Made by a program: the position numbers and the translations under genes. A DNA stretch of 64,000 nucleotides from Calditrichota bacterium (GTDB lineage Bacteria; Electryoneota; RPQS01): the NCBI GenBank assembly GCA_020637445.1, contig JACJVZ010000003.1:210150-274149 (forward strand), read 5' to 3'. Shown here piece by piece: positions 3,677-38,275 of the stretch; position 1 is the stretch's first letter; the number at the start of each line of letters is the position of its first letter. The notes under the pieces were generated by a model that saw nothing but the letters and a program-made list of their open reading frames with translations, made no database searches and had not been told where the DNA came from.

Positions 3677-5656
3677 TTACTTCAACAAAACAAGTTTCTG
3701 AGTTTCGACGAATGATCCGGCGGAAACTCGCAGGAGATAGACTCCGGTTGCGAAAGCCGCTCTATCTACCAGCAAGCTATGCACACCGGCATCGAAAACA
3801 TCATCAGCCAACGTTGCCGCTTCGCGGCCTTCGATGGTATAGAGTTTCGCCGACACATGTGAAGTTTGGGGTAAATCGAAAGCAACGCGCGTGACGGCGT
3901 TGAAAGGATTGGGATAGGCCGGATACAACACGAAGGATTCGGCAAGATCTGGACGATCCGGCGAATCCAACGCCAAAATATAGACTCCGACTTCATCTGC
4001 TGTGTCGGGGCAGGCATTGTGGTGAATGATGACCTCGCCGAAAAATTCGGATTCAGGGTGTTCGGGGTTGGTCAAGACGGACACGACGATCTCGCCCGAA
4101 GCTCCCGCCGCAATTTCGCCGGACTCGGGCGCGACATAGAGCCATCCATACGTGGGAGTGTGTTCAACGGTCTCGCAGGTAAACTGCAGAAGTCCGTCGC
4201 CGTCGTTTTGAACAGTTAACGTGTCACGCTCCCACCGTCCAAAAGTACCGATGATGTTGACGCTGGTCTTGTTGTTCTCGTATTGAGGAGTCCCGACGGT
4301 GAAATCAACGACGTTCTCCCCTCCCAAGACCAACTCGACCGATTGCGAATCCGGGGCAATGCACGGTCCCGTAATCAGTAAGGTCGCCTCGCTTTGATTT
4401 GTACCAAGCAAGTATGCACCTTGTTCGTCGGTGATCGTGAAATCTCCGGTTTCAACGACTTCGACTCGCACGCCGGACAACGGCTCATTTGTGCCTTGCG
4501 CCCGAACGATTCCGTTGACGATATAGCCGGGACCAAAGCGGTATAAGCGCGCGGCGTAGTCCGTAGACTGGAACGTCGTTCCGAAGATCAGTCCAGCACT
4601 GCCGCGGTTGTGCATGCCGCGCAGATCCACTCCGTCTGCCGAAAGCTCCGCCGAATGGTCGCTGTTACCGGACGAGTTTAACGTATATATCCGGCCTGTG
4701 AACGGCCCGACTTCGCTCGCAGTTGACCCGCACACAGTTGCGCCGCCGTCATCCGTAGGTCGAATACCGGAGATGCCAAAGAACTCGCCGTCTAACCCCG
4801 TCAAAGTCCAAACATAATTTCCGCTTGAGGTGAGCTTGTAAGCCCACGGCCAATAGATTCCGAAATCAAAGCCCTCATTCCCCGCGACATAGATATTTTC
4901 GTCGTCATCGAGTGCGATGGCTTGCGGCATGATGCGCATGATATCCGGAGAAGGATAGTCATTCATCCAAACAGTGCTTCCCGTAGGCGTGGTTCGTGCC
5001 ACAAATGCATCAAAAGTGAACGCATCCGTGGTCAACCAACCTGCGACCGCCAAGTCGCCATTGGCGAACTCTTGAACACAAGCTCCTTGACTTCCCCCCT
5101 GTCCTGAAACACTTGCAGTCCAGAGCGTGTCGCCGTTAGAGTCGAATTTGATTAGCAGATCGGATTGGGACCCGCTGTTGTCATACATACCCGTATACAA
5201 AACGAGTCCGTTGTCACGGGTCGCACAAATTCCCGCTTTGTTTTCGGGATAGGCGATGTCCAAGTCAAAAGAGATCTCGCCTTGAACGGCTCCGACATCG
5301 TTGATTCGGAGTACCGAGAGAGACGGCAAAGAGTCATTGTCAGACGTAACAACTCCAACTAACGCGATCTGGCCGTCTTCAAATTGCTCCATGCCAAGTA
5401 GGGTGCAGTAGTCACCCTGAAATGACACGGTTCCGTTCCAAACTTGGCTTCCAGTGGCATTCAGCCGCCACAGATCGATGCCCGCATCAGCATTGTGGGC
5501 GCTGGCCACCATTGTATGCCCGTTTTGCAGAATGATTGCGGACTGAACCCATTGAAAAGAGCTCAGGTCAATTTGTTGAGACCAAAGGGTGTCGAGTTCG
5601 GCGCGAGCCGGTTGCATGACAAAGAACAGCAGGACGATGAATCCAAATGACTTCAT
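3677..5656 (-). CDS. Secreted beta-propeller-repeat protein with T9SS C-terminal sorting domain (paralog 1 of 3)
   Basis: Start taken at internal Met (MKSFGFIVLLFFVMQPARA) preceded by AAAGGAG; ORF-track model 3677..5737 begins upstream of the signal peptide. C-terminus YPAYPNPFNAV...GVYLLRVSAGSFVETQKLVLLK is a Por/T9SS CTD. Confidence 0.8.
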   Translation of the reverse strand: MKSFGFIVLLFFVMQPARAELDTLWSQQIDLSSFQWVQSAIILQNGHTMVASAHNADAGIDLWRLNATGSQVWNGTVSFQGDYCTLLGMEQFEDGQIALVGVVTSDNDSLPSLSVLRINDVGAVQGEISFDLDIAYPENKAGICATRDNGLVLYTGMYDNSGSQSDLLIKFDSNGDTLWTASVSGQGGSQGACVQEFANGDLAVAGWLTTDAFTFDAFVARTTPTGSTVWMNDYPSPDIMRIMPQAIALDDDENIYVAGNEGFDFGIYWPWAYKLTSSGNYVWTLTGLDGEFFGISGIRPTDDGGATVCGSTASEVGPFTGRIYTLNSSGNSDHSAELSADGVDLRGMHNRGSAGLIFGTTFQSTDYAARLYRFGPGYIVNGIVRAQGTNEPLSGVRVEVVETGDFTITDEQGAYLLGTNQSEATLLITGPCIAPDSQSVELVLGGENVVDFTVGTPQYENNKTSVNIIGTFGRWERDTLTVQNDGDGLLQFTCETVEHTPTYGWLYVAPESGEIAAGASGEIVVSVLTNPEHPESEFFGEVIIHHNACPDTADEVGVYILALDSPDRPDLAESFVLYPAYPNPFNAVTRVAFDLPQTSHVSAKLYTIEGREAATLADDVFDAGVHSLLVDRAAFATGVYLLRVSAGSFVETQKLVLLK

Positions 5657-5737
5657 AAGGGCTCCTTTCGGGATGCAGCGCAATGACGAAAGACATTTGG
5701 TCCGGGCGGGACCCACTCCCGGGCCGGAAAAGAACAA

Positions 5738-7726
5738 TTAGCGAATATACAGCAATTTCTGGACGGCGAAGGTATTCGGCATCGCGGCCCGAACGAAATA
5801 CAGTCCGGTCGCTTCTCCGGACAAATCAATGTTTATATTGTGATTGCCAGCAGACATGCGACCGTCGACAAGAGTTTTTACCCATTTCCCTGCAATGTTA
5901 TACACCTCCAAGCGGGCGACAGTTTCATTGGGAATCGAGAGTGTAATTGAGGTGTTGCTATTGAAGGGATTTGGATAGGCCGGCGACAGTGAGAACTGGG
6001 CCGGGAGCTCGGAGTGATCGTTGACATCGAGCACACTGACCAGAATGGGTAAAACCATCACGGTGTCTGGACAGGCGTTGCTTCGGATGGTCAGTTGCCC
6101 GTAGAACTCAAAGTTTCCATCGTTGGTGGTGTCAGCATGAGCAGTTATGACGGCGGAAGTGCTTGCATTGGGCGCCAAAACTCCGTGATCAGGCGCAACC
6201 GTGAGCCACGCTCCCGGAGGAGAAATTCCTTCGACGCTGAGAGTGTAGTTCAGGCTACCCGAACCGGAATTGGAAAAAGAAACGTTCGCGGTGCCGTCGG
6301 TCTCGTTTTGCGAAATGATATTGACGCTCGATTGGAGATTCGCAACGTTGGGTTCGCCGACTTCAAAATTTATTTGGACCGACTCGTTCTCGACCACTTG
6401 GACTCCGAAGACGGTATCCGCTTCGATACAGGCACCGTTGACAACAAGGTTATAGGTTCCGGCTTCAATATCAAATTGATAGACTCCATCTACGTCCGTG
6501 AGCGCGTAACGCAGTCCTCCCGAATCCGAGACGCGGGCACCGGGTACGGGATCTCCGGTTTCGGCGCTGCGTACGATTCCGTGAATTCCTGCGGGCGGCG
6601 CTAAAGACAAAATGTAGGCACTGACAGCGTTGTCGTCGGCAACGATTGCACCGACTGCAACAGCTCCGCCGCTGGAGTAGCGAACGATATTGTTGAATCC
6701 GCCTTCTGCGCCGAGATTTCCATAGCGCCACACCCAGCGCGTGAGGTTTTCGTCATCCACCGCGCGCATGAACGGGCCGGTGTCCGTTGCACCGGGTCCG
6801 GACTTTCCGACGAATAACATGCCACCGAACCACGGAGTCGCACCGACAAAACGATCGGCGAAACCTGTTGAGCTAAAGGCGAGCGAATAAGGCGCTCCAT
6901 CTGTAGGATGCACTCCGACAAATCCCGAAGTGCCGTTGACATCGCTTCTGCCTACGATCCAAAGAGTTCCGACCGGGTCGGCAATGACATTAAAGCACGT
7001 TTCGTAGTTGGACGTGCCATAGGTTCGACCCGTACCGATTTGATTTCCGTCCAAATCGAATTCAAGCTCCCAGACGTCCGTGGAGCCCGCGCCGTAACTT
7101 CTGGTTTGAGCGGCGACGACCAGATTACCATCGGGTTTTTGAATGATATCGTTGCCGATATCGGTGTCATTTCCGCCCACCGTACGCGTCCAAACGGTAT
7201 CGCCGTTGGCTTCACACAAGAGTACCCAGACATCTGAATGTGTGGGGTCCGTTGTGCCGCCTCGGTATCCCGTCACGGCGAAGCGGCCGTCGGTAAGTTT
7301 GCAGAGATTCCAGCTTTTGGTCCGGCCTTCGCGAGCATACCCTCTTTGCCACAGGACTTCGCCGGTGGACGCCAGGAATGAGACGAGGCTCACCTCTCTT
7401 CCGTCTTGAATATCCCATCCGGCGGCAACCATCGTGTCGCCGGACAGAGCGATCAGACCGTTGAGCGATTCATTGTCCGTGGAGGCCAAGACGGTTTGCG
7501 CGTAGACCGAATCACCGGACGTGGTGTAGGCACAGATGAGATAGTCATAGTCGGGATCGGTAAAACCGATTTGGGCATAGCCGACTCCGACGATCAGGGT
7601 ATCGTGCACCACGGCGGCGTCGTACAGATAGCATCGATCATTGACCAGAAAAGAGCGCGACCACGTAGTATCGGGCTGCGCAAAGGAAAGACACGGCAGG
7701 AGCAACAGGAGCAGCAGCGCAGGCAT
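5738..7726 (-). CDS. Secreted beta-propeller-repeat protein with T9SS C-terminal sorting domain (paralog 2 of 3)
   Basis: 662 aa; signal peptide MPALLLLLLLPCLSFA; carboxypeptidase-regulatory-like middle domain (GIVRSAETGDPVPGARV); CTD AYPNPFNSNTSI...GLYFVRAAM...KLLYIR. Confidence 0.8.
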   Translation of the reverse strand: MPALLLLLLLPCLSFAQPDTTWSRSFLVNDRCYLYDAAVVHDTLIVGVGYAQIGFTDPDYDYLICAYTTSGDSVYAQTVLASTDNESLNGLIALSGDTMVAAGWDIQDGREVSLVSFLASTGEVLWQRGYAREGRTKSWNLCKLTDGRFAVTGYRGGTTDPTHSDVWVLLCEANGDTVWTRTVGGNDTDIGNDIIQKPDGNLVVAAQTRSYGAGSTDVWELEFDLDGNQIGTGRTYGTSNYETCFNVIADPVGTLWIVGRSDVNGTSGFVGVHPTDGAPYSLAFSSTGFADRFVGATPWFGGMLFVGKSGPGATDTGPFMRAVDDENLTRWVWRYGNLGAEGGFNNIVRYSSGGAVAVGAIVADDNAVSAYILSLAPPAGIHGIVRSAETGDPVPGARVSDSGGLRYALTDVDGVYQFDIEAGTYNLVVNGACIEADTVFGVQVVENESVQINFEVGEPNVANLQSSVNIISQNETDGTANVSFSNSGSGSLNYTLSVEGISPPGAWLTVAPDHGVLAPNASTSAVITAHADTTNDGNFEFYGQLTIRSNACPDTVMVLPILVSVLDVNDHSELPAQFSLSPAYPNPFNSNTSITLSIPNETVARLEVYNIAGKWVKTLVDGRMSAGNHNINIDLSGEATGLYFVRAAMPNTFAVQKLLYIR

Positions 7727-7777: not shown

Positions 7778-9772
7778 TCAGCGAATGTACAGCAGTCTTT
7801 GGGTTTGACTGCGGGAGTGATCGGACAAGCGAACAAAATACAATCCGGACGCCAGTCCCTTTGCCTCCCACGACAGGGAATGTTCTCCGGCGGGGAGTTT
7901 CGAATGACTCAGCAGCACGGCGACCTCGCGTCCCGTGACGTCATAGACCCGCAGTGAGACGTCGGACTCGTGATCGAGACCGAACCGCAAGCGTGTGACG
8001 TTGTTGAAGGGATTGGGATAGGCGGGATAGAGCGCAAATTCGGACGGCAAGGCGGGAGCGTCGTCGGCATCGAGTACGACGGCCAGCACATCAAAAGTCA
8101 AGACCGTATCGGGACACGAATTAGTGTGCAGCTTGAGTTCGCCGAAGAAATCGTAGTTTCCGCTGTCGTTGGTGTCGGCCTCGAGAATGACTTGAGCGAC
8201 AAGCGTGCTTCCCGGTGCCAGTCGTCCAAAGGGAGGTTCGACACGAAGCCAGTCATCAGGCGGAATTTCGGTCAGGGGTTCGAAGGAATAGACCAGATCG
8301 CCGCTGCCGGAATTTGAAAATCTCAGGTCGGCGGCGCCCTGTCCATGATTGGGGCCGACGACGTTGATCGAGGAGTAGCTGACGGCGAGATTGGGGACGC
8401 CGGCAGTGATATCGGCTTGAGTATTCTGGTTGGCGAAGACCTCAATACCGTGAACAGTGTCGCCGGCGAAACACGGTCCGCCCGAGAACATCGTGTAAAC
8501 TCCGGGCGGCAGAGCGAGGGCAAACCGTCCGACCGTATCTGAAACGGCATATTGCGGCAGTTCAGCGGCCTGCACGCGCACTCCGGCAACAGGTTCGTTG
8601 GTGACACGATTATGAACGACGCCAGAGATACCCGACGGCGGACTAATCCGCCACATCAGCATGTTATCATGTCCGGAGGTGTTGGCTCTTCCGCAGGCGA
8701 CAAAACCACCGTCGGAGATACGAACCAAATCTTCGAAAGCCCGGCCCAATTCCGTGTCTGTCCAGGTCCAACTTGTGTCCCCGTTGGTCGTCGTCGCCAC
8801 AAGCCACAACCTGCCGGAATTTACACTGGCGCCGGTTTGTCCGGCGAACAGGGTTCCGCCTTCAAGATAGGGAGCGACACCGGTAAATTTCTCGCTGCCA
8901 CGTCCGTCGGTATAGGTTCGTTGCCAAAGTGTTTCTCCCGCGGAATTGAGACGCATGGTGAAAGCATCGCGCAGAGAACCGGAACGGGATTCCCCCGTGA
9001 CAACGACGTCCCCGCTAACGGAATCCACGGTCGCCGCGAAAACCTGCTCGTAGTCTGAATCACCGTATGTCCGTTCACTGATAAAATTGCCGTCGCTGTC
9101 CGTAATCACGATATAGAAATCAAAGTGACGACTGGTGTCGGGATCGCTGGTCGTGCCGACGAGCAGGAGGTTTCCATTGGGCACACGTACGATCTCGTTG
9201 GGCCAATCAGGATTTGATGTGCCAAATGTCCTTGAATAGAGCGAATCGCCATTCGAGTCACAGCGCATCAGGTAGAAATCGAGCGATCCTCCGGGGCCGG
9301 TTCGTCTACCAGCTACATAAAACCCGCCGTCCTGATTGGGCAACAGCGCGGCCGCTTGGTCGGAGCCAGACCAGAAAAACTCCCTTGACCAGACGAAATC
9401 ACCTTGCTGTGAATAGCATACGACCAGTGAGTTTAGGCTTGAATCATGGCCGCACGCCACCAGATTGCCATTTGTAAGCACATCAACGTCAAATAGTTGC
9501 TGAACTGAATTGGGAACTCCGAAAATGCGGGACCAAAGAGTGTCACCAAGCGGATCGTAGCGCACGATGATTGCATCGTCAGAGTTGCCTGCGAACACAG
9601 AGCCAACCGCTACGAACCCGCCGGTGCTAAGCTCAATACAGGAATTTAGTGAAGAGGCGGATCCAAGATCGTAGATACTGGTCCATAGGGTGTCCACCTG
9701 CGCGGAGGCACGAGTCGTCAGACCTGACAAAAGAAGCAGCGCAAGGGCGAGAGTGAATGGCTTGAAACTCAT
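7778..9772 (-). CDS. Secreted beta-propeller-repeat protein with T9SS C-terminal sorting domain (paralog 3 of 3)
   Basis: 664 aa; signal peptide; same domain order as the two downstream paralogs; CTD AYPNPFNNVTRL...GLYFVRLSD...RLLYIR. Confidence 0.8.
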   Translation of the reverse strand: MSFKPFTLALALLLLSGLTTRASAQVDTLWTSIYDLGSASSLNSCIELSTGGFVAVGSVFAGNSDDAIIVRYDPLGDTLWSRIFGVPNSVQQLFDVDVLTNGNLVACGHDSSLNSLVVCYSQQGDFVWSREFFWSGSDQAAALLPNQDGGFYVAGRRTGPGGSLDFYLMRCDSNGDSLYSRTFGTSNPDWPNEIVRVPNGNLLLVGTTSDPDTSRHFDFYIVITDSDGNFISERTYGDSDYEQVFAATVDSVSGDVVVTGESRSGSLRDAFTMRLNSAGETLWQRTYTDGRGSEKFTGVAPYLEGGTLFAGQTGASVNSGRLWLVATTTNGDTSWTWTDTELGRAFEDLVRISDGGFVACGRANTSGHDNMLMWRISPPSGISGVVHNRVTNEPVAGVRVQAAELPQYAVSDTVGRFALALPPGVYTMFSGGPCFAGDTVHGIEVFANQNTQADITAGVPNLAVSYSSINVVGPNHGQGAADLRFSNSGSGDLVYSFEPLTEIPPDDWLRVEPPFGRLAPGSTLVAQVILEADTNDSGNYDFFGELKLHTNSCPDTVLTFDVLAVVLDADDAPALPSEFALYPAYPNPFNNVTRLRFGLDHESDVSLRVYDVTGREVAVLLSHSKLPAGEHSLSWEAKGLASGLYFVRLSDHSRSQTQRLLYIR

Positions 9773-10008
9773 GGAAACTAAAGATATAACAATTGGTTAG
9801 CTGTGCTCGAAGGCAGTTCTTGTAAACTATTAATATACCATAGTCTCATGGCCTCTTCAAGTTCCTCTTGGAAGATTGAGCAATTAAGTGGTGGTTACGG
9901 TGCCCAGCCGAGAATTGTGTTTGCCGGACCTCGCTGGCTCTTGAGAGTTGTTTTCTTTTAGTTTATATTTACGTTTTAGGAAAAAAGTCAGAGTTTCGGG
10001 AGTTGACC

Positions 10009-10980
10009 ATGTATCGCATCGCTCTTAGTTTGATGATCCTTCTTTTCCCAATGCTCACCGCATCGGGATACACGGTGTCCGGCAACATATCCGGTCGCGA
10101 AGGTGCGGCACTCACGTATGTTTATACGATTCCGACGAGTCTGGACACGTTCTACATCGCGATCGCGAATTTCCTGAATGGCAATTACTCACAGGGTAAT
10201 CTGGACGAGGGAAGTTACATCATATTCTCATTTCAGGATGCGAATTTCAGCTTTTTGCCCGATCCGGACGAATCGCGGGGATTTTACGGCGGAGAAGTAC
10301 CACAGACGTTGGACGTGTCGTCCGATTTGACAGGCATCGATATAGAACTGATGCCGCCGAACACAGGAGGATTTTCCGGTACGACGACGTACGAAGGCAG
10401 TGAAACGGGACCGACGTATGTTTTTGCACACCGGACGAACACGTTTGACGGCCTGCCAAGCGGAGCGGGAATTTTGCTCAACAATTCGGGAAGTGGAGAC
10501 TACACGGCGATAGTGGACAGCTTTGGAGTTTACTACGCGTTCGCGTTCATGGATGTGAATTCGAACTTTCAGTACGACGTGGGTGAACCCTACGACGTAT
10601 ACGGCGACGATCTTGAACCTGAGCCGATTACGATTACTCAGGGACAATCGTTTCCGGACAACATAAATTTCACTCTCGTAGCGACGTCTTCCGCAGCCGC
10701 GCCGACCGTGGCCGTTTCCGATTTCGAGCTTGGCCAAGCCTATCCCAATCCGTTCAATCCAGTCGCGACGATTCCTTTCACATTGGAAAGAACGTTGAGT
10801 GTTGAGATCGTGGCTTGCGACATCCTTGGACGAACGGTGCGAACACTGCACTCGGGGGTTTTACCCGCCGGCGAACACAGCGTTACCTTTGACGGCAACG
10901 GATTGGCGAGCGGACTCTACATTATCGAATTGCGCACACAAAACCACTCATCATGCACTCCCGCCGTGCTGTTGAAATAG
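10009..10980 (+). CDS. Secreted protein with T9SS C-terminal sorting domain
   Basis: Start at first ATG (MYRIALSLMILLFPMLTASG) with GGGAG upstream; the ORF-track start 10003 is TTG. CTD AYPNPFNPVATIPF...GLYIIEL. Confidence 0.7.
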   Translation: MYRIALSLMILLFPMLTASGYTVSGNISGREGAALTYVYTIPTSLDTFYIAIANFLNGNYSQGNLDEGSYIIFSFQDANFSFLPDPDESRGFYGGEVPQTLDVSSDLTGIDIELMPPNTGGFSGTTTYEGSETGPTYVFAHRTNTFDGLPSGAGILLNNSGSGDYTAIVDSFGVYYAFAFMDVNSNFQYDVGEPYDVYGDDLEPEPITITQGQSFPDNINFTLVATSSAAAPTVAVSDFELGQAYPNPFNPVATIPFTLERTLSVEIVACDILGRTVRTLHSGVLPAGEHSVTFDGNGLASGLYIIELRTQNHSSCTPAVLLK

Positions 10981-13900
10981 TTTGGCTCATAGGGCTCCTG
11001 ATTTTAGCCGCCGGACTGCGCGTTCCGACGGCACGCGGGGAAGCTCTCTTTGTTCGGGGAGAAGTCACGGGAATTTGGAGTGCGCCGATAGACACGGTGG
11101 TGATTGACAGCTTCGCGTGGGTTCCCGCTGCGGAGACATTGCAGATAGCGCCCGGAATGGTTGTGGCCTTTTCCGGGCGTTTTTCATTGTTGGTCAACGG
11201 AACTCTGTTAGCCAACGGCGAAGGCGATGATTCCATTTTCGTACAGAGCATTCCGTACCACGATTCCAACGGTCATCTTGGAATCAGGTTCTACGAAACC
11301 ACCACGATCTCGCGGCTGAACAAGGTCAAGTTCGAGGACGGGTTCGCGAACTCGGGTAACTTTGAACGCTACGGCGGAGCGCTTGAACTCTATTTCTCGG
11401 AAGTTGAAATAGACTCTTGTTTATTTCAAGGCAATCGCGCGCGCATCGACGGCGGAGCAATTTATTGCCGCGAAGCGGGGACGCTGACGGTGCGAGCCTC
11501 GGAGTTTGAAGGCGACAGCACACGGTTTGGCGGAGGCGGCGCAATTTTGGCGCGGACGAGCGGTTACGTGCGGCTGACGCGCTGTAGATTCACGAACAAC
11601 TCGGCGGCGGTAAGCGGCGGCGCGGTCACTTCGGAGAGCGGCGTCGTGGTTGAACTTGATAGCTGCTATTTTGCGAATAACTTTGCCGTCAACAAAGCCG
11701 GCGGGCTCTACCTCTGGTCGACTCCTCCGGCAAGCTGGATTCGCAATTGCGTGATTGAAGAGTGCGTGGCCGATCAGGGCGGCGGAATCTTTACGGACAA
11801 CTGCCGGGCGACGATCGACGGATGCACGATTCGGAATTGCTTTGCCCGCTTGGGCGGCGGATTAGGCGCGCGACGGTCGAATAATCTTACGACCCTTTCG
11901 CACACGACGATTACGGGAAACGCCGCCAATGAAGACGGCGGCGGACTCTACATTACGGAGGCCGCGCGCTGCACGGTCGAGAATTGTTTGATTGCGAACA
12001 ACACGGCCACACGCGGCGGGGGAATCTTCACAGTCGCGTCCACTTCGCCGACGATTCGCTTCACGACATTTGCAGGAAATATTGCGCAAGGCGGATCGGC
12101 TCTGGATTTCTACGGCGGCGGCGAAATTTACAATTCAATTGTCACAGGTGAAACCGGAGACGCTCTGGTCAATTACGGCGCCACCGCTTCACCGACGGTT
12201 TCCTATACGAACATCTTCTCAAACTCGGTGCCTGAGTTGTCGGGAGTTCATCCTGAGTGGCTGCTGGAAAACACGAGAATGAATGTCGCGCTGGTGGAAT
12301 GTGACTCGCTGAGAAACATCTCATTCGATCCACAATTTGTAAATTCCGACAGCGGTGATTTCAATCTTTCGGACATAAGTCCGTGCTTGTTCGGTGCAGA
12401 TACAAGCTATTCGAGCGGTGCTGATCTCGCTGGAAATCCACGGGTGTCTCCGCAGGGAAGTTGGCCGGATATGGGGGCATATGAGAACGATGCGCCGCTG
12501 CCGTATTTTCAGAATTGCGGACCGCAGCGCGGAGTTTGGTTTCCGGGCGAGTACGTTGTCGGCTGTTCTTTGAGAGTTGAAACCTCTGATACTCTTGTTC
12601 TGATGGGCGGCGCGACACTCTTGTTCGCTCCCGGAGCCGGACTATATGTTGAGGGAACGCTGCTGGCGATGGGCACCGCGCACGATTCGATCGTCTTTGA
12701 CCGCTATTTTGACTTGCCGGACGCGACGTGGAACGGGATTTCGCTGGCATCCTCGACCACAAATTCACGACTGAATTATTGTTCCGTGCGGCACGTCGTA
12801 GGAGCGTCGGCACTGACGACCAGCGAACCAGCCACACAACTCAACCATTGCACGTTTTCATTGAACGAGCACGTCGGCGGTGGCGGAGGAGCCGCAAGCG
12901 CGCTGCAAAACTCGTCACCTGTTTTTACAAGGTGCACATTTAAGCAGAACCGCGCAACCACGGGCGGAGCAGTTAGTGCCCTGACAGGACACATCGACTT
13001 TCGCGGATGCTTGTTTGACCACAACGAGGCGGTAAACTTCGGTGCTCCATTCACTGCACTTGGCGGCGCGGTGAAATGCGAAAACGGGAGCTTCTCGGAG
13101 TGCTTGTTTGTTTCCAACACGGCCTACGAGGGCGGCGGCGTCGCATTGGATCATACGGGGATTTTTACAGACTGCGAATTCGACTCATGCGCGGCATGGA
13201 AAGGCGGCGGCCTGTCGCTCGGCGGGGGAACGGCGGAGCTTTACCGGGTTGAGTTTCGCGGCAATCAAGGAAAGGATTTCGGCGGAGCTGTGTGCATGGG
13301 CGAGGCGGTACTTTCGGACAGCGGCAGCTTTTACATAGGCAATCGCGGTGCAAACGGCGGAGCGATCGCGAATCTTCATGGCGGGTACTCGGGAACAGAC
13401 ACTGAGTATAGTGACAACTCGGCCGACAATGAAGGGGGAGTGATTTGGCTGGGAAATGACCGAGCGGCATTGTTTTTTACGTGCACACTCCACCGCAACC
13501 ACGCGAAGACCGGTGGAGCAGTTTGGGGAGACGCGGCAGGCATCGACTTTTTCCGCTGCTTATTGGACAGCAATTATGCGACGGAAGCGACGGGCGGAAT
13601 TTACTTGCTCGGCGGAGGCGTGTCCTTCTTGCGTTCGACGGTCGTAAATCACCATTCGCCCGGGCAAGGCACGGTCGTGCAAAACCGTTTCAATTCGGTG
13701 TTGTGGTGCAACTCGACTCTGTTTGCCGAAAACGGCGACAGCCCCATTTCCGTTCACAGCGGAGTGCAGAACGACTTCCGGTATTCGATGAGTGACGTGC
13801 TCATCGTAGCCGGCGACGATTCGATCGGATTTCCGAGCAGGGTGAATTTTAACGGCGATTCGTGCGACGCGGATTTGAATCTTGTGGCTGAACCGTTGTT

Positions 13901-14624
13901 TGTCGATTATGCGGCTCGCGACTACCGGTTGCAGAGCGAATCCAAAGCGGTGCAGGCGGCAGATTCGCTGCTTCCGCTCGACGACGACGGAACGCGCGCG
14001 GATATTGGGCTCTATCCGGGTATTCGTCCGTACCTGCTTTTGCAGCCTTTCAATCTTGCGTGGCCTGAACGGAACGCATACTTTCATCCGGGCGATACGG
14101 TGGCGTTTGCATGGAATTCATCGTGGGACGGCGATCCGGGAGACGAAATAGACTATTCACTACATTTGCACAGCGAGTCGTTTGACACGGCTATTACAAC
14201 GGGCAGCGAACTTGGCCATACGGTAATACTGCATAACGGGCAATATGAATGGTGGGTCGTGGCCGCGTCGCATCAACCGGAAACGGAACTGGAAAGTTTT
14301 GAGCGCCGGACGTTTGTCGTCACCGATCCTGACCTTGGCCTTGATGATGTTTTGTGGCCCCGGGAGTTTTCAGTTTCGATGGACGGACCGAATCCGTTTA
14401 ACAGCGCAACGCGACTGCGGATTACTCTTCCCCACTCCACTGAAGTGACGGTAACATTGGTTAACGTTTTGGGCAGAACGTCATTCGCGATTCGTGAACG
14501 TGAATTTGTAGCTGGGGTCCATAGCATTTCAATTGATGGGACTCGGCTCGGTTCGGGTGTGTATTGGGCGCATGTTAAAACGAGTTTAGGAACGAAAACT
14601 CTTCAATTACACTTGATCAAATAG
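10953..14624 (+). CDS. Pmp-like parallel beta-helix repeat protein with T9SS C-terminal sorting domain
   Basis: 1223 aa; signal peptide; ~18 GGA[IVL]/GGG[IVL] and F-x-x-N motifs (DGGAIYC, FQGN, FTNN, FANN...) as in polymorphic-outer-membrane-protein repeats; CTD NPFNSATRL...GVYWAHVK. Start overlaps upstream gene by 28 nt, so start is uncertain. Confidence 0.8.
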   Translation: MHSRRAVEIVWLIGLLILAAGLRVPTARGEALFVRGEVTGIWSAPIDTVVIDSFAWVPAAETLQIAPGMVVAFSGRFSLLVNGTLLANGEGDDSIFVQSIPYHDSNGHLGIRFYETTTISRLNKVKFEDGFANSGNFERYGGALELYFSEVEIDSCLFQGNRARIDGGAIYCREAGTLTVRASEFEGDSTRFGGGGAILARTSGYVRLTRCRFTNNSAAVSGGAVTSESGVVVELDSCYFANNFAVNKAGGLYLWSTPPASWIRNCVIEECVADQGGGIFTDNCRATIDGCTIRNCFARLGGGLGARRSNNLTTLSHTTITGNAANEDGGGLYITEAARCTVENCLIANNTATRGGGIFTVASTSPTIRFTTFAGNIAQGGSALDFYGGGEIYNSIVTGETGDALVNYGATASPTVSYTNIFSNSVPELSGVHPEWLLENTRMNVALVECDSLRNISFDPQFVNSDSGDFNLSDISPCLFGADTSYSSGADLAGNPRVSPQGSWPDMGAYENDAPLPYFQNCGPQRGVWFPGEYVVGCSLRVETSDTLVLMGGATLLFAPGAGLYVEGTLLAMGTAHDSIVFDRYFDLPDATWNGISLASSTTNSRLNYCSVRHVVGASALTTSEPATQLNHCTFSLNEHVGGGGGAASALQNSSPVFTRCTFKQNRATTGGAVSALTGHIDFRGCLFDHNEAVNFGAPFTALGGAVKCENGSFSECLFVSNTAYEGGGVALDHTGIFTDCEFDSCAAWKGGGLSLGGGTAELYRVEFRGNQGKDFGGAVCMGEAVLSDSGSFYIGNRGANGGAIANLHGGYSGTDTEYSDNSADNEGGVIWLGNDRAALFFTCTLHRNHAKTGGAVWGDAAGIDFFRCLLDSNYATEATGGIYLLGGGVSFLRSTVVNHHSPGQGTVVQNRFNSVLWCNSTLFAENGDSPISVHSGVQNDFRYSMSDVLIVAGDDSIGFPSRVNFNGDSCDADLNLVAEPLFVDYAARDYRLQSESKAVQAADSLLPLDDDGTRADIGLYPGIRPYLLLQPFNLAWPERNAYFHPGDTVAFAWNSSWDGDPGDEIDYSLHLHSESFDTAITTGSELGHTVILHNGQYEWWVVAASHQPETELESFERRTFVVTDPDLGLDDVLWPREFSVSMDGPNPFNSATRLRITLPHSTEVTVTLVNVLGRTSFAIREREFVAGVHSISIDGTRLGSGVYWAHVKTSLGTKTLQLHLIK

Positions 14625-14652
14625 TTTATCAACCAGTATAGATATCGATGCG

Positions 14653-14687
14653 GGAGGTCGGCTGCGATGCCGACCTCTCTTTTTTTC
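14653..14687 (+). terminator. Intrinsic terminator after the Pmp-like gene
   Basis: Stem ggaggtcggc / gccgacctc with loop tgcgat, followed by tctttttttc. Confidence 0.75.
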
Positions 14688-14877
14688 ACAATGTACGCAA
14701 AGTCGGCTTTTCAAGCAGATTTTGCGGGTGAATGCTGATGCAAATCATTGAATATAGTGTTCTTTGAAATTCGACAAACTTAATCAAGGTTTTTTGATAA
14801 TTGCTCTGATTCTCTTGCACTTGCGCGAACCAGAAGGTAATTTGTAGGTGACACTAACAGTAAAAGGGGATTATGTC

Positions 14878-17800
14878 ATGAGAGCAAGGATTTTGCTGTT
14901 GAGCCTTGCGGCACTGATGATGATCGGAGAGCGGGGAGTGCTCGCTGATTCAGCACAAGTATCTGAAGTCCGTGGCCAAAGATTGCGGACGGAACTGCAA
15001 AAGACGAACGATTCGGCAAAACAGAGAGCGATCAGAAAAGAGATTTCGCAGCGTGCGCAGACTCGGGAGCGGAGAGACTCGCGCGAACGGTTGGATCAGG
15101 GAGGAGAAACATGCTCTTTGCCGACGGACTTGACAGGAATGCCGATTCCGATTGTCGTGTCCGGAACCACCATCGACTTCGCGGACGACTACAATTGTGC
15201 AGGATTCGGTCCCGCGCCTCCGCCCTGCTGGACAGGCTACTACGATCAGCTGACTTCGTGTTCCGGGCCGGACGTGGTCTACAGGTTTACACCGCCGGCA
15301 GACGGGGATTACCGTTTTTCGTTGTGCAATTCGGATTACGACACGGGAATCCTGATCTTTAACGATAACTGTCCGCCGAATTTTCCGACGGACTTCGTCT
15401 GCGGAAACGACGACTATTGCAATGTTCAGACTGAGATCGTATCGCTTTCTCTGACCTCCTCGCAACCGATATTGGTTATTATCGACGGCTGGAATGGTGA
15501 TGCGGGAAACTACGAGTTGGTGATTGATTTTGCGGAGCCGCCGCCGCCCAACGACGATTGTTTCGGTGCACAGTTCATCGAGGCGCCGTCTTTGGTGTCA
15601 GGATCGACGGCCAATGCAACGTATGACGATGCGCCGTTCGTCTGCGGAGGGTCGGTCATCGACGGTCCGGGAGTTTGGTATACGACTCTGGGAACTGGAA
15701 ATACGATGACCGTGAATACGTGCTTGCTGGACGGCTATGACACTCAGATCGCCGTTTACCAAGGAGGTTGTACGGGTTTGACGTGTGTTGACGGCAATGA
15801 TCAATTCTGCCTGAATCAGAGTCAAGTGACGTGGTGCAGTCAAGCGGGAGAGCAGTATTTCATTCTCGTGCACGGTTATCAGGGACAGGCCGGAGATTTT
15901 GTGTTGGAACTCACGGACGACGGCATCCCGTGCGGAGGAACGACGCCTGTACTATCCATCCTTGAAGTTTACGAGAACTTGCCGGACTTGGTAGGTCAAC
16001 AGGTGACCATCCGGGGCTTTGGTTCCGGCCCGAATCAGGGGATTATCACGGAAACTGAAGGTGATTGGCTGCGCAACACGGAGCTTGAGCCGTATTCGGC
16101 GCTCAAAGTAGTCGGACTTGATCCTTGGAATATTTACATTCCTGAGTTGATGTGGGGGCAGTACATCGAAGTGCAAGGTATCATTGGCGCGATTCCGATC
16201 TCGCCGGACGTGCCGCCGGGATATGAGGCCACGATTGAAGTCAACGCGCCTGCGGTCGTGGTCCCGAGCACGCCGCATGTGCCGGTAACTCAGGGAAATT
16301 GGCGGCCAGCCAATTGGACTCCAGACACGACGAATTGTGATACGTGCAATTTCGGGATGTTCATCTCGGGCGGAATCGACAGTGCAAACAACCGGGACGA
16401 CTACTGGGATGATTTGGTTGATTTCTACTGTTACAAAACCGGCGCCGGGTATTGTCCGCAGAATATCAACATCTACTATTTCAAAGGCGACACGCTGGAC
16501 GGTAGAATACCTCCTGCGCGAGTGGACTCTTGCACACAGGCAAAGATTCAGGCCAGAATCAATGCGATTGCCAGCAAGGTCAAGGCTTGCAAAGATGCTG
16601 GCAAAACACCCAAGGTTGAGATTGTCGTGACGAATCACGGAAAACATCCTCCCAACGGTGGAATCAATATTCTGGGCCGCGACGGGGCCGGCAGTTCAAA
16701 CGCGATATCGCCGCATGATTTCACATCCATGATCCAGACTTTGTGCGATTCTGGAGCTGCAAATATCGAGATTGAGTTAGGCGAGTGCTTCAGCGGACAG
16801 ATGGTCAATCATCTTCGCGACAGTTTGGACACTAAAGGCGCAAATGTCACGGCAGCTTCGGCGGCGCCGGATTCACTTTCGAGTTGGAGCAAAGGCAAGA
16901 AGGGCGGCTGGAACCGTTGGCTGAATCCGTTGGTTTGCGCGAGATACTCGGGAGAAAGCCTTCCCGAAGCGATTCGTAGAGCGAATCAAAGCTACGACTC
17001 TTCTCTTGTGCAGCTTGATTCGTTGTTCCGGGCATGGGCAGCTTATCTCGATTCACTTGGTACACACGGAGACTCGGTGAAGGCCGCCAAGTACCGCCGG
17101 TGGGCCAGCGACGCCATCAACGGCAAGGGCGGAGAAACCGTTTGGTTCAGCAGAACGTTCAAAGAATCGTGCAACGGAGACACGATATCGGTTTCGCCGG
17201 GCGGCAGACTTGAATTCACGTATTCCGGTCCGAACTCGAGCTGCGGCAACAGCGAGATTATTTGCAAAAACACGGCCGGCCATTGGATCAATTACCGCCA
17301 TTGGAATTGGAACGTACCGGGCTCCGCGGGTTACCACACTGGCAACAATGTCCGCACGTTGGATGCCGGTGCGGGACACACAGGACTCTACGTCATTCAC
17401 AGTTTGAGTGATTCATTCAGGGTTTCTATCAAATCCATCAATCCACCGCTTCCTCCAAGTCTTTTGACCTCTGCTTCGAATCCTGAAGACTATGCGGGCT
17501 TCGGTGTGGGCTGGACATCGGGAAATTCGGATGAATTCGGGGCAATCAATACGGCCACACTGACACTCCCGGACGTGGACGACGACGGATTTGATCTGTC
17601 GACGGCTCCGAAACTGCTCGGCCCGGGCGGAGTGGGACAATTGTTCGCGGACTTTGACGTGTTGGCGGAGAACTATTGGTGGACGGACATGCGGGTTTAT
17701 ATGCGCGTGCTCGGAGGAACGGCCGGTGTGACGGTGACAGCGGACTGTCCCGATTGCGAATTCTCCAATGTTTCGTACGATCTCGCGGGCGGAGACGAGA

Positions 17801-18144
17801 AATTTTATTTGAACCTCGGTTCGATCAACGTGGTGGGTTCACATACGTTGTCGCTCACGGCGACCGGAACAACGGAATTGGATTGTTGGGGACTTGAATC
17901 GGCACACTCGACGGGAACACCGCTGCCTGTGACGGATCTTGTGATCATTCGTGACGGCGACAACATCAACCTTCACTGGAGCGCGGTGCCGCTTGCCGTC
18001 AGTTATTTGGTACAGAGAGCTGCATCCGAGAATGGGCCGTGGGCAACCATTGGATTGGCTTTCGGAACGACTTTCGTGCATACGGGACAAGCGGCGTCCT
18101 CAGACGAGCAGCTTTACTACCAAGTGATCGCGGTTAGTCCGTAG
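14878..18144 (+). CDS. Large secreted multidomain protein: two PPC-like jelly-roll domains, clan-CD (legumain/gingipain-like) cysteine peptidase candidate, C-terminal Fn3-like domain
   Basis: Start at ATG (MRARILLLSLAALMMIG) with AAAGGGG upstream; putative His-Cys dyad in strand-associated motifs IVVTNHGKHP and IEIELGECFSGQM; no T9SS CTD. Confidence 0.75.
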   Translation: MRARILLLSLAALMMIGERGVLADSAQVSEVRGQRLRTELQKTNDSAKQRAIRKEISQRAQTRERRDSRERLDQGGETCSLPTDLTGMPIPIVVSGTTIDFADDYNCAGFGPAPPPCWTGYYDQLTSCSGPDVVYRFTPPADGDYRFSLCNSDYDTGILIFNDNCPPNFPTDFVCGNDDYCNVQTEIVSLSLTSSQPILVIIDGWNGDAGNYELVIDFAEPPPPNDDCFGAQFIEAPSLVSGSTANATYDDAPFVCGGSVIDGPGVWYTTLGTGNTMTVNTCLLDGYDTQIAVYQGGCTGLTCVDGNDQFCLNQSQVTWCSQAGEQYFILVHGYQGQAGDFVLELTDDGIPCGGTTPVLSILEVYENLPDLVGQQVTIRGFGSGPNQGIITETEGDWLRNTELEPYSALKVVGLDPWNIYIPELMWGQYIEVQGIIGAIPISPDVPPGYEATIEVNAPAVVVPSTPHVPVTQGNWRPANWTPDTTNCDTCNFGMFISGGIDSANNRDDYWDDLVDFYCYKTGAGYCPQNINIYYFKGDTLDGRIPPARVDSCTQAKIQARINAIASKVKACKDAGKTPKVEIVVTNHGKHPPNGGINILGRDGAGSSNAISPHDFTSMIQTLCDSGAANIEIELGECFSGQMVNHLRDSLDTKGANVTAASAAPDSLSSWSKGKKGGWNRWLNPLVCARYSGESLPEAIRRANQSYDSSLVQLDSLFRAWAAYLDSLGTHGDSVKAAKYRRWASDAINGKGGETVWFSRTFKESCNGDTISVSPGGRLEFTYSGPNSSCGNSEIICKNTAGHWINYRHWNWNVPGSAGYHTGNNVRTLDAGAGHTGLYVIHSLSDSFRVSIKSINPPLPPSLLTSASNPEDYAGFGVGWTSGNSDEFGAINTATLTLPDVDDDGFDLSTAPKLLGPGGVGQLFADFDVLAENYWWTDMRVYMRVLGGTAGVTVTADCPDCEFSNVSYDLAGGDEKFYLNLGSINVVGSHTLSLTATGTTELDCWGLESAHSTGTPLPVTDLVIIRDGDNINLHWSAVPLAVSYLVQRAASENGPWATIGLAFGTTFVHTGQAASSDEQLYYQVIAVSP

Positions 18145-18175
18145 GACCCAAGAAACCAGAACTGGGGAGAGGGAA

Positions 18176-18225
18176 CGGGGCGCGGCTCGCAAGAGTCCGC
18201 CCCGTTTCTGCTTGTTTTGGGTTTT
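18176..18225 (+). terminator. Intrinsic terminator candidate after the clan-CD peptidase gene
   Basis: cggggcg...cgccccg stem followed by tttctgcttgttttgggtttt. Confidence 0.5.
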
Positions 18226-34606: not shown

Positions 34607-34933
34607 ATGTAATATCTTCGAGTATCAGAGTCAATCACATTTTCGAATTTTTAATATTTTGATATTTAATAGTTTGTGGCAATAGTCTTGTAAGCCCGCG
34701 AGTCTTTAGGCTTTCGGGTACACCTCTTTGTTTGTGATCCAAAGGGATCGTGCTGCAGTATCTACAGATTATTTTCGCATTCCTAATAAGAGGCAACGAG
34801 AGCGTGTGTGGAAACCGTGGATAAGAAAATGACTTATTGCAGTTTCAATCGTTGAATTGAATCGATAGAAATCTTGACCAAATGCGTTTTGGAGGCTATC
34901 TTATTATCCTATAACTTTGTGAAAGGCTCAAGT

Positions 34934-37900
34934 ATGGCTGCTTTGACTCGGTTTGACTGCCTTTCTTATTGCTCCAAAATTGGAGCGATTGGATCTATTT
35001 TCATTATTGTTTTGATGCTTGGTGTCTTGCCATCCCTTGCATTTGGTGCAGACGGCCAGCAATCCGAGCAGCTTTCACCTTTGCATGAGGACTATGTTCC
35101 TCCCTCCCCCGCCGAGGACGTGCGCATAGAAATAATCGGCGATGCGCGGACGTTCGCCGTCAACAATCCCTTCAGTCGTGATTTCTTACGCAGATCGGGG
35201 TTGATGGCAAAAGGAAGCACGTGCGGTCAAGGCAACAACTGCGCACTGCGCCCGAGTGAAGATGTCGTGTTGTCCGTGTTTATTCCGACCAGTAGAAACT
35301 GGTCGTTTTCGCTCTGCGGCTCGTCGTTTGACACGTACATGGCAATCGGCACGACTCCTTGTTCCGCCAATTTGGGATTCAACGATGATTTTTGCGGCCG
35401 GCAGTCCCAGTCAGAGTGTATCTATCTGGACGTCGGCGTAGTCTATGTGACCATTGAGTCGGGATCCGGCGGATGCGGCACATACAAATTGATAGTCGAT
35501 ACGTGTTCGGCGGGCCGCTGCTGCTACATGGATTCAAATAACGAGCCGGCATGCACAAACTCGGGATATACCGAGTGTGCCGCAGTAAGCGGCGAATGGG
35601 ATGCGTCGACGAGGTGCGAAACGGATCCTTGTCCCTTGGGCCGTTGCTGCTACGAGATCGACGGAGTGCCGAATTGCATGGACGGGCTGTTGGAAAAAGA
35701 GTGTTTGTTCAACCTTCAAGGCACATGGACGGAAGGCGTCACGTGCAGCCAGGAGATATGTCCTGAGATGGTGGACACCCTTACTTGCGGTCCGCTGGAC
35801 TTGGTGCTGGCCATTGATGTTTCGGGTTCAATGATAGAGGAACTTTCTACTGTTCAATCGGAAGCCCAAGAAATTTTGACTCGTGCTGTTGAAGTGTCCC
35901 GCGAAGATCTGCGAGTAGGTCTGGTAACTTTTCGCGAATTCGTCAGCGTACCTTCATCCCTGACGAACGATATCGGATCTGTGTCTTCCGCCATTGGCCA
36001 GCTTTTCGCTTATTGGGGCGGCGATCCCGGAGAAGCGTCTGACGAAGCCCTGCGCGAGATTATCACGATGGACGGTTCTTGCACACATGGTCCGGGATTC
36101 GACACGCCTTTCAGAGCGGGCGCGGACAAAGTGATCATCATCATGACGGACGAGATCAATAGCGGGTGCTCGGGAATATTCAGGCCGCAGTATGCTCATC
36201 AACGCGCATTGGACGCTCAAGCCGCGGATATCAGGATTTCCTCTATCTATATTCGAGGAGAATTGAACGAACGGAATATATCCGATGTATTGCGAGACTA
36301 CGCCGAGACGACGGGCGGCCTCTATGTGGTATCGCGCGCAGGAGAAAACATCTCTGAAAATATCGAGTACATTTTGGATCGCTGCGGTCGGTCGACGCTT
36401 GCTTTGGCCGGTGATTCGATACCCAATGTGCCGTGCGTAAACTCCACCGACTTTCCAAACCAAGTAGAGTTGAAGATCAGAGTAAGGAATGTAACAAACG
36501 AACCGATCGGTGGAGGCACGGTTCATTTGTTTTCTGACGCAGGTCCCGGAGGAACAGGTCTTGTAATCTCTCCAAATCCCGTGTCACTGGGGTACGTACT
36601 TCCTCACGACACCGTCGAAGTAGGATTCACGGTAGTCCTCGCGGCCAATCCTTCCGGGGGATGCATCAATTTTCGCGCTGTACTGACTCAAGACACTATT
36701 GAACTCGGAACGGATTCGATATGCATAAACGTTCCAAATGGGGGACTTGAATTTGGGAATCACTGGTTTCCCGCGGTACACTGCGACGGATACGGGGTTG
36801 CACCCACCAGTTTCACGGCCACGTTTGATGTGGTCAACAACTCGCTTTGCGAAGTGGATGACGCCCAAGTATCATTGGAAATTTTGAGCGGAAGCGGCGG
36901 TCAAGGCACGGTAGTTTCAGCAAATCCCGTGCAGTTGGGACACGTTCCTTACGGCCGGACCGTTACCGTACCATTTGACGTACAGATTCAACCGTTGCCT
37001 CCGGGAGGGTGTATCTACTTTCGAGCCATGCTGCACTTCGGTGATGAACCATACCAAGTGCAAGAGTCGTGTTTGAATATCCCTTCCTATGAGCTTACGC
37101 TGCTGGCAATTTCTGACTATGCCGTCAGCTGTGTAGATGGCGAAATAGTGCCTTTGTCTATGAATTTGGTTGTCGCGGCACGGAACTCATCCTCATGTCC
37201 TGCACACGGAGTACAGATATGGATGGGACCCGGCAATGGGTCCGCAGGTACCGGAACGGTCGTGACGCAGAATCCGGTTGTGATCGGCACCATGAATCTC
37301 CTCTCCACACGAGGTGCGAACTTTGGTGTTGAAATCAATCCGAATTCCACAGGCGGAATCATTTCTTTCCCCGTGAAATTGATTGTGGGTACAGACACGG
37401 TTGCCACGAGCAATGCAAACATCATTGTTCCACCTTGCGGCTGCGAGTCGACAACTGCCGTTGTGATGTCATCCAAGAGCGAGAGCTTGGGATGCACTTG
37501 TGTGCAAATGTGTGATACCGCACCAATTCCCATCACAATCTGCGGGGACGGCTACGAAACGCCAAGCCCGCCAGTTATCAGTTTTCAAGACTGTTTCGGT
37601 GACTGCGTGCAGGGCGAAGCTGCGGTTCCGGAATCACTGTGGATACACGAGAATGATTGCTGGACAAACTTCATCCATGTGGTCGTGACCGGATGCACCC
37701 AAGTATGCGCAGAGTTCCCCAGACATCTCGCCGCGGCGGATTTCAAGTTGATACGAGACTTCGACCGGATTTATGTTCGCTGGAACATGGTCTCAGAGAA
37801 GAACTTGAAACTGCTCGAAGTAGAACGCAACGGCCAAATGGTTGCTGTTGTCGACGCGACGAACGAAGTCGGTTCCGAGTACGAGTGGACGGACAGCAAC

Positions 37901-38275
37901 GTTCGTCCGGGAGCATCGTATGAGTACCGGTTATTTGCCACGGACCTTGAAGGGATGCGCGGCGAACTTGGGTTTGCAGTTGCGTCTCCGCTAGACGAAC
38001 CCTCTATCGTCAGTGGTTTCGCTTTGCTTCCAAACTATCCCAATCCGTTCAACGGCTCGACAACCATAGAATTCGATTTACCGGAAGCCTCTGACGTGCA
38101 GCTTGTGGTGTACGACATTTCCGGGCGTAAGGTGACAGAACTTGCGCATGGCTCATTTGCCTCGGGCCGTCATGCTGTAGTGTTTGGCGGAGAGGAATTG
38201 GCCTCCGGGCTCTACCTCTGCCATATGACAGCAGGGAAGTTCTCGACACGACAAAAGATGCTTTTGCTAAAGTAG
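34934..38275 (+). CDS. Giant secreted protein: PPC-like domain, Cys-rich CCY repeats, vWA domain, T9SS C-terminal sorting domain
   Basis: Start at MAALTRF... ahead of hydrophobic signal; vWA (LDLVLAIDVSGSM); two GRCCY Cys-rich repeats; CTD LPNYPNPFNGSTTIEF...GLYLCHM...KMLLLK. Confidence 0.8.
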   Translation: MAALTRFDCLSYCSKIGAIGSIFIIVLMLGVLPSLAFGADGQQSEQLSPLHEDYVPPSPAEDVRIEIIGDARTFAVNNPFSRDFLRRSGLMAKGSTCGQGNNCALRPSEDVVLSVFIPTSRNWSFSLCGSSFDTYMAIGTTPCSANLGFNDDFCGRQSQSECIYLDVGVVYVTIESGSGGCGTYKLIVDTCSAGRCCYMDSNNEPACTNSGYTECAAVSGEWDASTRCETDPCPLGRCCYEIDGVPNCMDGLLEKECLFNLQGTWTEGVTCSQEICPEMVDTLTCGPLDLVLAIDVSGSMIEELSTVQSEAQEILTRAVEVSREDLRVGLVTFREFVSVPSSLTNDIGSVSSAIGQLFAYWGGDPGEASDEALREIITMDGSCTHGPGFDTPFRAGADKVIIIMTDEINSGCSGIFRPQYAHQRALDAQAADIRISSIYIRGELNERNISDVLRDYAETTGGLYVVSRAGENISENIEYILDRCGRSTLALAGDSIPNVPCVNSTDFPNQVELKIRVRNVTNEPIGGGTVHLFSDAGPGGTGLVISPNPVSLGYVLPHDTVEVGFTVVLAANPSGGCINFRAVLTQDTIELGTDSICINVPNGGLEFGNHWFPAVHCDGYGVAPTSFTATFDVVNNSLCEVDDAQVSLEILSGSGGQGTVVSANPVQLGHVPYGRTVTVPFDVQIQPLPPGGCIYFRAMLHFGDEPYQVQESCLNIPSYELTLLAISDYAVSCVDGEIVPLSMNLVVAARNSSSCPAHGVQIWMGPGNGSAGTGTVVTQNPVVIGTMNLLSTRGANFGVEINPNSTGGIISFPVKLIVGTDTVATSNANIIVPPCGCESTTAVVMSSKSESLGCTCVQMCDTAPIPITICGDGYETPSPPVISFQDCFGDCVQGEAAVPESLWIHENDCWTNFIHVVVTGCTQVCAEFPRHLAAADFKLIRDFDRIYVRWNMVSEKNLKLLEVERNGQMVAVVDATNEVGSEYEWTDSNVRPGASYEYRLFATDLEGMRGELGFAVASPLDEPSIVSGFALLPNYPNPFNGSTTIEFDLPEASDVQLVVYDISGRKVTELAHGSFASGRHAVVFGGEELASGLYLCHMTAGKFSTRQKMLLLK

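Follow-up and report, generated by a model that had tools for sequence, protein, structure and literature searches.

The gene at 14878 to 18144 of the window, the whole 64,000-nt stretch of DNA analysed here, encodes a large exported multi-domain protein of an uncultured Calditrichaeota bacterium. This protein is probably a cysteine endopeptidase of clan CD, legumain-like but strongly diverged in its catalytic domain (aa 484-714). The product is identical to P0001, a record titled 'hypothetical protein KDB65_08695, Calditrichaeota bacterium', and the full-length sequence gave no Pfam, NCBIfam or PADLOC match at E≤1. The coding sequence and its parts are as follows.

14878..18144, + strand: coding sequence, 1088 aa and stop, 100% identity to P0001
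14878..14949, + strand: putative Sec-type signal peptide, aa 1-24 (MRAR, hydrophobic ILLLSLAALMMIG, VLA/D cleavage-type site)
14950..15093, + strand: Arg/Gln-rich charged segment, aa 25-72, from residue composition
15100..15531, + strand: PPC-like module 1, aa ~75-218, from alignment to PPC-bearing homologs and a vWA protein
15538..15942, + strand: PPC-like module 2, aa ~221-355, from similarity to module 1
15943..16287, + strand: conserved pre-domain of the cassette, aa 356-470, with no Pfam or PDB sequence relative
16327..17019, + strand: clan CD (legumain/C13-like) catalytic domain of caspase-hemoglobinase fold, aa 484-714, from structure model and homology
16399..16404, + strand: codons of Asp508-Tyr509, aligned to legumain S1 Arg44-His45
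16636..16638, + strand: codon of His587, proposed catalytic His (TNHG), directly after strand beta3, from model and conservation
16786..16788, + strand: codon of Cys637, proposed nucleophile (GECFSG), loop after strand beta4, from model and conservation
17020..17130, + strand: helices C-terminal to the catalytic domain (aa 715-751), modelled with low to moderate confidence
17131..17913, + strand: C-terminal conserved region of the cassette (aa 752-1012), with motifs CGN, WNWNxPGS, SNPxxxAGF, EFG and CWGL
17920..18141, + strand: Fn3-like C-terminal module, aa 1015-1088, ending just past the strand-F-type motif YYQVIAV

The fold was assessed on a structure model built on a 36-sequence clade alignment, which replaces a 4-sequence model of only moderate quality (pLDDT 64.5). 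The model contains a central parallel beta-sheet flanked by five helices, as in the caspase-hemoglobinase fold, and in structure comparison the clan CD structures led all other folds by more than 10 Z units. No sixth beta-strand followed alpha5 in either modelled range, and the models thus show the canonical six-stranded sheet only in part. In clan CD, the His-Cys dyad lies on loops after strands beta3 and beta4 (PMC4357240). The proposed dyad is placed in the same way, with a strand at model residues 96-103 followed by residue 104 (His587) and a strand at 146-151 followed by Cys637 at residue 154. The preliminary description had pointed to a His-Gly block and a Cys block about 50 residues later; IVVTNHGKHP begins at aa 582 and IEIELGECFSGQM at aa 630, and the spacing from His587 to Cys637 proved to be exactly 50 residues. 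The clan motif, reportedly described in MEROPS and by Chen and colleagues in 1998, is His-Gly with hydrophobic strand residues ahead of both His and Cys, and the target has EIVVTNHG and NIEIELGEC at these places. The residue before the catalytic Cys in clan CD is usually Ala, whereas Glu or Gln occupies the position before Cys637.

We then found that the dyad is retained across the family. His587 was kept in 100 and Cys637 in 102 of 107 homologous domains, together with Gly588 (107/107) and Gly640 (105/107), and all close relatives share His-Gly and Cys-x-x-Gly with the query. Since His and Cys are also invariant in four full-length homologs at about 50% identity, and near-invariant across the 107 domains, the motif pattern is, as judged from the alignments, not due to chance. 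The reading as a clan CD-like cysteine peptidase had been offered with two checks, the fold of a predicted structure and the conservation of His and Cys in homologs, and both came out in its support. Two further pairs of cysteines co-occur: C487 and C526 were both present in 59 of the 107 domains, both absent in 46 and mismatched in 2 (p 2.6e-28), and C490 and C571 were similarly associated (p 5.4e-14). These pairs behave as disulfide partners would. The domain profile retrieved 294 cluster representatives at E≤1e-3. Clustered at 50% identity, the family thus comprises at least 294 groups, which come mainly from uncultured Calditrichaeota, Zixibacteria, Eisenbacteria and similar lineages. Their proteins are annotated as 'hypothetical' or named only for their secretion tail. 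The loci related through the 4-sequence clade alignment are five MAG loci, a number that says little about taxonomy. Orthologs about 50% identical lie in conserved synteny, which suggests purifying selection on the target gene and supports the main reading.

The relationship to legumain was reached through intermediates. The isolated domain scored 14.5 bits against Pfam Peptidase_C13 (PF01650; E 0.026), below the cut-off of 22.8, and PDB sequence searches with the 4- and 36-sequence clade profiles returned no clan CD protein, legumain included, at a meaningful E-value. Because there was no direct sequence match, the C13 link required intermediates and structure. Seven of ten distant family members exceeded the gathering score of Peptidase_C13, and these relatives matched PALs and legumains of known structure with E-values from 1.5e-10 to 1e-9. 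Alignment of the query clade to the seven C13-positive relatives with hhalign gave 99.8% and E 2.5e-29, and it lined up NHG with DHG and QC with QC. By alignment, His587 is equivalent to His139 of P0160 and to TDHG of OaAEP1, and Cys637 to Cys178 and EACESG. These alignments point to homology with bona fide C13 enzymes, transitively and only via the C13-positive intermediates. The resemblance to C13, C25 and C11 suggested in the preliminary description thus held for legumain, which is close, but not for gingipain (C25) or clostripain (C11), which are distant and neither of which is the closest fold or family. Metacaspases (C14B), which that description did not mention, are about as close as C13. 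Our literature search returned no characterised bacterial legumain or C13-like enzyme; all that it yielded was work on eukaryotes and a review of clan CD.

Legumain recognises Asn through a zwitterionic S1 pocket of Arg44, His45, Ser216 and Asp231, and in RgpB, Asp163 in alpha1 sets Arg specificity (PMC4357240). In the target, mapping by alignment rather than coordinates placed Arg44 at Asp508, His45 at Tyr509 and Ser216 at Ser669, with no placement for Asp231; by this alignment the legumain pocket is not present. Asp508 is limited to the closest clade, and Arg or Lys stands at that position in 73 of the 107 domains. As the Arg44 position in alpha1 is Asp and the His45 position is Tyr in the immediate clade, we expect that the enzyme is not Asn-specific. 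An acidic residue occupies the same place in MALT1, gingipain R and metacaspase, and cleavage after Arg or Lys is on this basis tentatively predicted by analogy. Glu636 was considered as a second co-varying pocket change and rejected, as it did not track Asp508 across the clade. The target is therefore legumain-like in fold and dyad, but it is not a demonstrable asparaginyl endopeptidase, since it falls below the C13 threshold and the Asn-binding residues of legumain are not conserved.

In the presumed catalytic mechanism, extended from the clan, the loop that follows beta4 would supply the nucleophile, Cys637, and the loop that follows beta3 the general acid/base, His587. The P1 side chain of the substrate would enter a pocket to which the first part of helix alpha1 contributes. 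The catalytic domain would act inside a conserved cassette of about 650 aa consisting of pre-domain, protease, helices and a beta-rich C-terminal region. The C-terminal part is common to 56 fetched homologs and has no Pfam or PDB sequence relative; profiles of it and of the pre-domain matched no PDB sequence. In legumain, a C-terminal activation peptide and an LSAM prodomain control a zymogen that is activated by pH. Helices also follow the catalytic domain of the target (aa 695-750), but they were modelled with low confidence and have no sequence match to legumain C-domains. These flanks may plausibly bind substrate or keep the enzyme latent, a form of zymogen control. The PPC-like pair and the Fn3-like module at the C-terminus may be interchangeable accessories for binding, or for anchoring the protein at its final location. 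In agreement with the Fn3-like C-terminus described earlier (LHWSAVPLAVSYLVQRAA, at aa 1032), aa 1021-1087 matched residues 13-78 of the 103-residue chain of Fn3-like 3mpc (phmmer E 3.5e-05). Pfam fn3 gave no match in the target. A complete Fn3 sandwich has seven strands; in 10 clade members the sequence stops directly after the strand-F-type motif.

At the N-terminus, the h-region of the putative signal peptide has a mean Kyte-Doolittle value of 2.6 and, on inspection, no lipobox Cys follows, from which we infer export of the protein by a Sec-type route. The basic, Arg/Gln-rich segment noticed before was borne out by composition: the 48 residues of aa 25-72 include 11 Arg, 3 Lys and 6 Gln, with Arg and Lys at 29% against 6.1% protein-wide. 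The two tandem modules that follow, likewise recognised earlier, are mutually related (E 4e-07 by BLASTP), and many other secreted proteins contain tandem copies of the module 2 type. Module 1 also recurs, as had been proposed, in the vWA/T9SS protein encoded at 34874-38275 (31% identity over 86 aa, E 2e-07). Pfam PPC (PF04151) had no match in aa 75-355 at E≤1. PPC domains were above threshold in homologs P0018 (42 bits) and P0025 (68.7 bits), within stretches aligning to module 1, so the name 'PPC-like' has transitive support only, through these two homologs.

The target had been set apart from its neighbours by the lack of a T9SS tail. In this study, no such tail was detected in it by Pfam at E≤1 or by a local CTD profile, which finds tails in at least 32 of 153 family members. 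Por_Secre_tail was matched by seven neighbours, at 3677-5737, 5738-7726, 7778-9772, 10003-10980, 10953-14624, 34874-38275 and 51598-54384; five were above the Pfam cut-off, and those at 3677-5737 (22.8 bits) and 10953-14624 (20.3 bits) were below it. The neighbourhood consists of housekeeping genes and T9SS cargo, and though synteny is conserved, no inhibitor, chaperone or sortase was found in it as a functional partner. A role in anti-phage defence as a CHAT-like caspase relative was rejected on these surroundings, the signal peptide, the extracellular-type modules and the absence of a PADLOC hit.

Several other explanations were weighed. The protein could be metacaspase-like (C14B-type), or an independent clan CD family, rather than legumain-like, with Arg/Lys specificity and possibly activation by Ca2+ or autoprocessing. 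We regard this as rather unlikely. Pfam Peptidase_C14 matched neither the full length nor the isolated domain, and the bridging relatives are classed as C13 by Pfam. Compared with the type II metacaspases (Arabidopsis MC4 and MC9), there is no evidence in the target of a type II insertion or a Ca2+ site, and its context is extracellular and multi-domain. A further reading, to which we give a small but somewhat better chance, sets the query clade apart as a clan CD family of its own, intermediate between C13 and C14B. It would be marked by the cassette of about 650 aa with relative-less flanks, by an S1 pocket whose inverted charge (Asp in place of Arg on alpha1) changes the specificity against the C13-like cousins, and by a terminal Fn3-like module that lacks the G strand. 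This module would take the place of the T9SS CTD in sorting or anchoring the protein, for instance through strand complementation by a partner.

C13 also includes GPI8, the GPI transamidase, and the plant peptide asparaginyl ligases. Like these, or functionally like the T9SS sortase PorU, the protein could be a transpeptidase or ligase and not a hydrolase, cleaving the C-terminal signal of surface proteins, possibly the adjoining T9SS cargo, and joining them to another acceptor. Hydrolase and ligase are not distinguishable by sequence. PorU, a T9SS C-terminal signal peptidase, is similarly a large clan CD-type protein (about 1100 aa) of T9SS organisms, a likeness of size and possible context only; the target has no Pfam match to PorU and no NCBIfam match to it or any sortase model, and its catalytic domain is C13-like, not C25-like. 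In addition, the Asn-recognising residues of GPI8 and PALs are not conserved, the synteny neighbours on the other side are unrelated housekeeping genes (Aldedh, SIMPL, DinB), and many proteins with the same cassette are themselves equipped with T9SS tails or dockerins, as secreted cargo enzymes are. A ligase is thus improbable. Catalytically dead caspase-like domains exist, as in Raptor and c-FLIP, and the domain could be such a scaffold in a surface adhesin, or the motifs could be incidental in a generic Rossmann-like alpha/beta domain. The retention of both motifs in the query and all close relatives, the lead of clan CD over every other fold, and the lack of a nucleotide-binding motif or oxidoreductase family match make this very hard to sustain, and a Rossmann-type oxidoreductase was rejected on the same structural lead.

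The centre of the target is a highly diverged relative of the legumain/caspase-type cysteine proteases and, as the family is unannotated, a credible new protease subfamily rather than new biology. Compared with the legumains/AEPs, PALs and GPI8, it is a bacterial protein of 1088 aa and several domains, in which those around the catalytic domain are uncharacterised and no LSAM domain is recognisable, and its family has two extra cysteine pairs. The C13-positive relatives carry an acidic residue two before the Cys, where the target has Gly635. Like the gingipains RgpB and Kgp of Porphyromonas gingivalis, it is a secreted clan CD protease of a T9SS-bearing lineage in which beta-rich or Ig-like domains follow the catalytic domain, many family members carry a T9SS C-terminal domain, and its clade has an Asp in alpha1 as RgpB does. 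With the family recognised, the degradative repertoire predicted for these sediment and soil bacteria gains a class of extracellular cysteine proteases, and a new curated model can be seeded from it. That the main specificity residue seems to switch inside a single family, being mostly Arg and here Asp, provides a natural experiment on P1 change in clan CD. Because C13 includes peptide ligases used in protein engineering, bacterial relatives may prove useful in practice, provided that bacterial hosts express them well and that any of them ligate. The gain in annotation is solid; current concepts are unchanged, without surprise.

The reading frame extends over 14848..18144 on the + strand, with the ATG at 14878 (MRARILLL...) chosen as the start. 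The following elements flank it.

14652..14679, + strand: terminator-like hairpin of the upstream gene, 11-bp stem with 8 G-C pairs and a T-run
14863..14869, + strand: Shine-Dalgarno-like AAAGGGG, 8 nt 5' of the ATG, from sequence reading
18171..18209, + strand: terminator-like hairpin 3' of the stop codon, -34.3 kcal/mol, z -3.5, with a U-rich tract after it

The first hairpin stands between the upstream T9SS beta-helix gene and the target gene.

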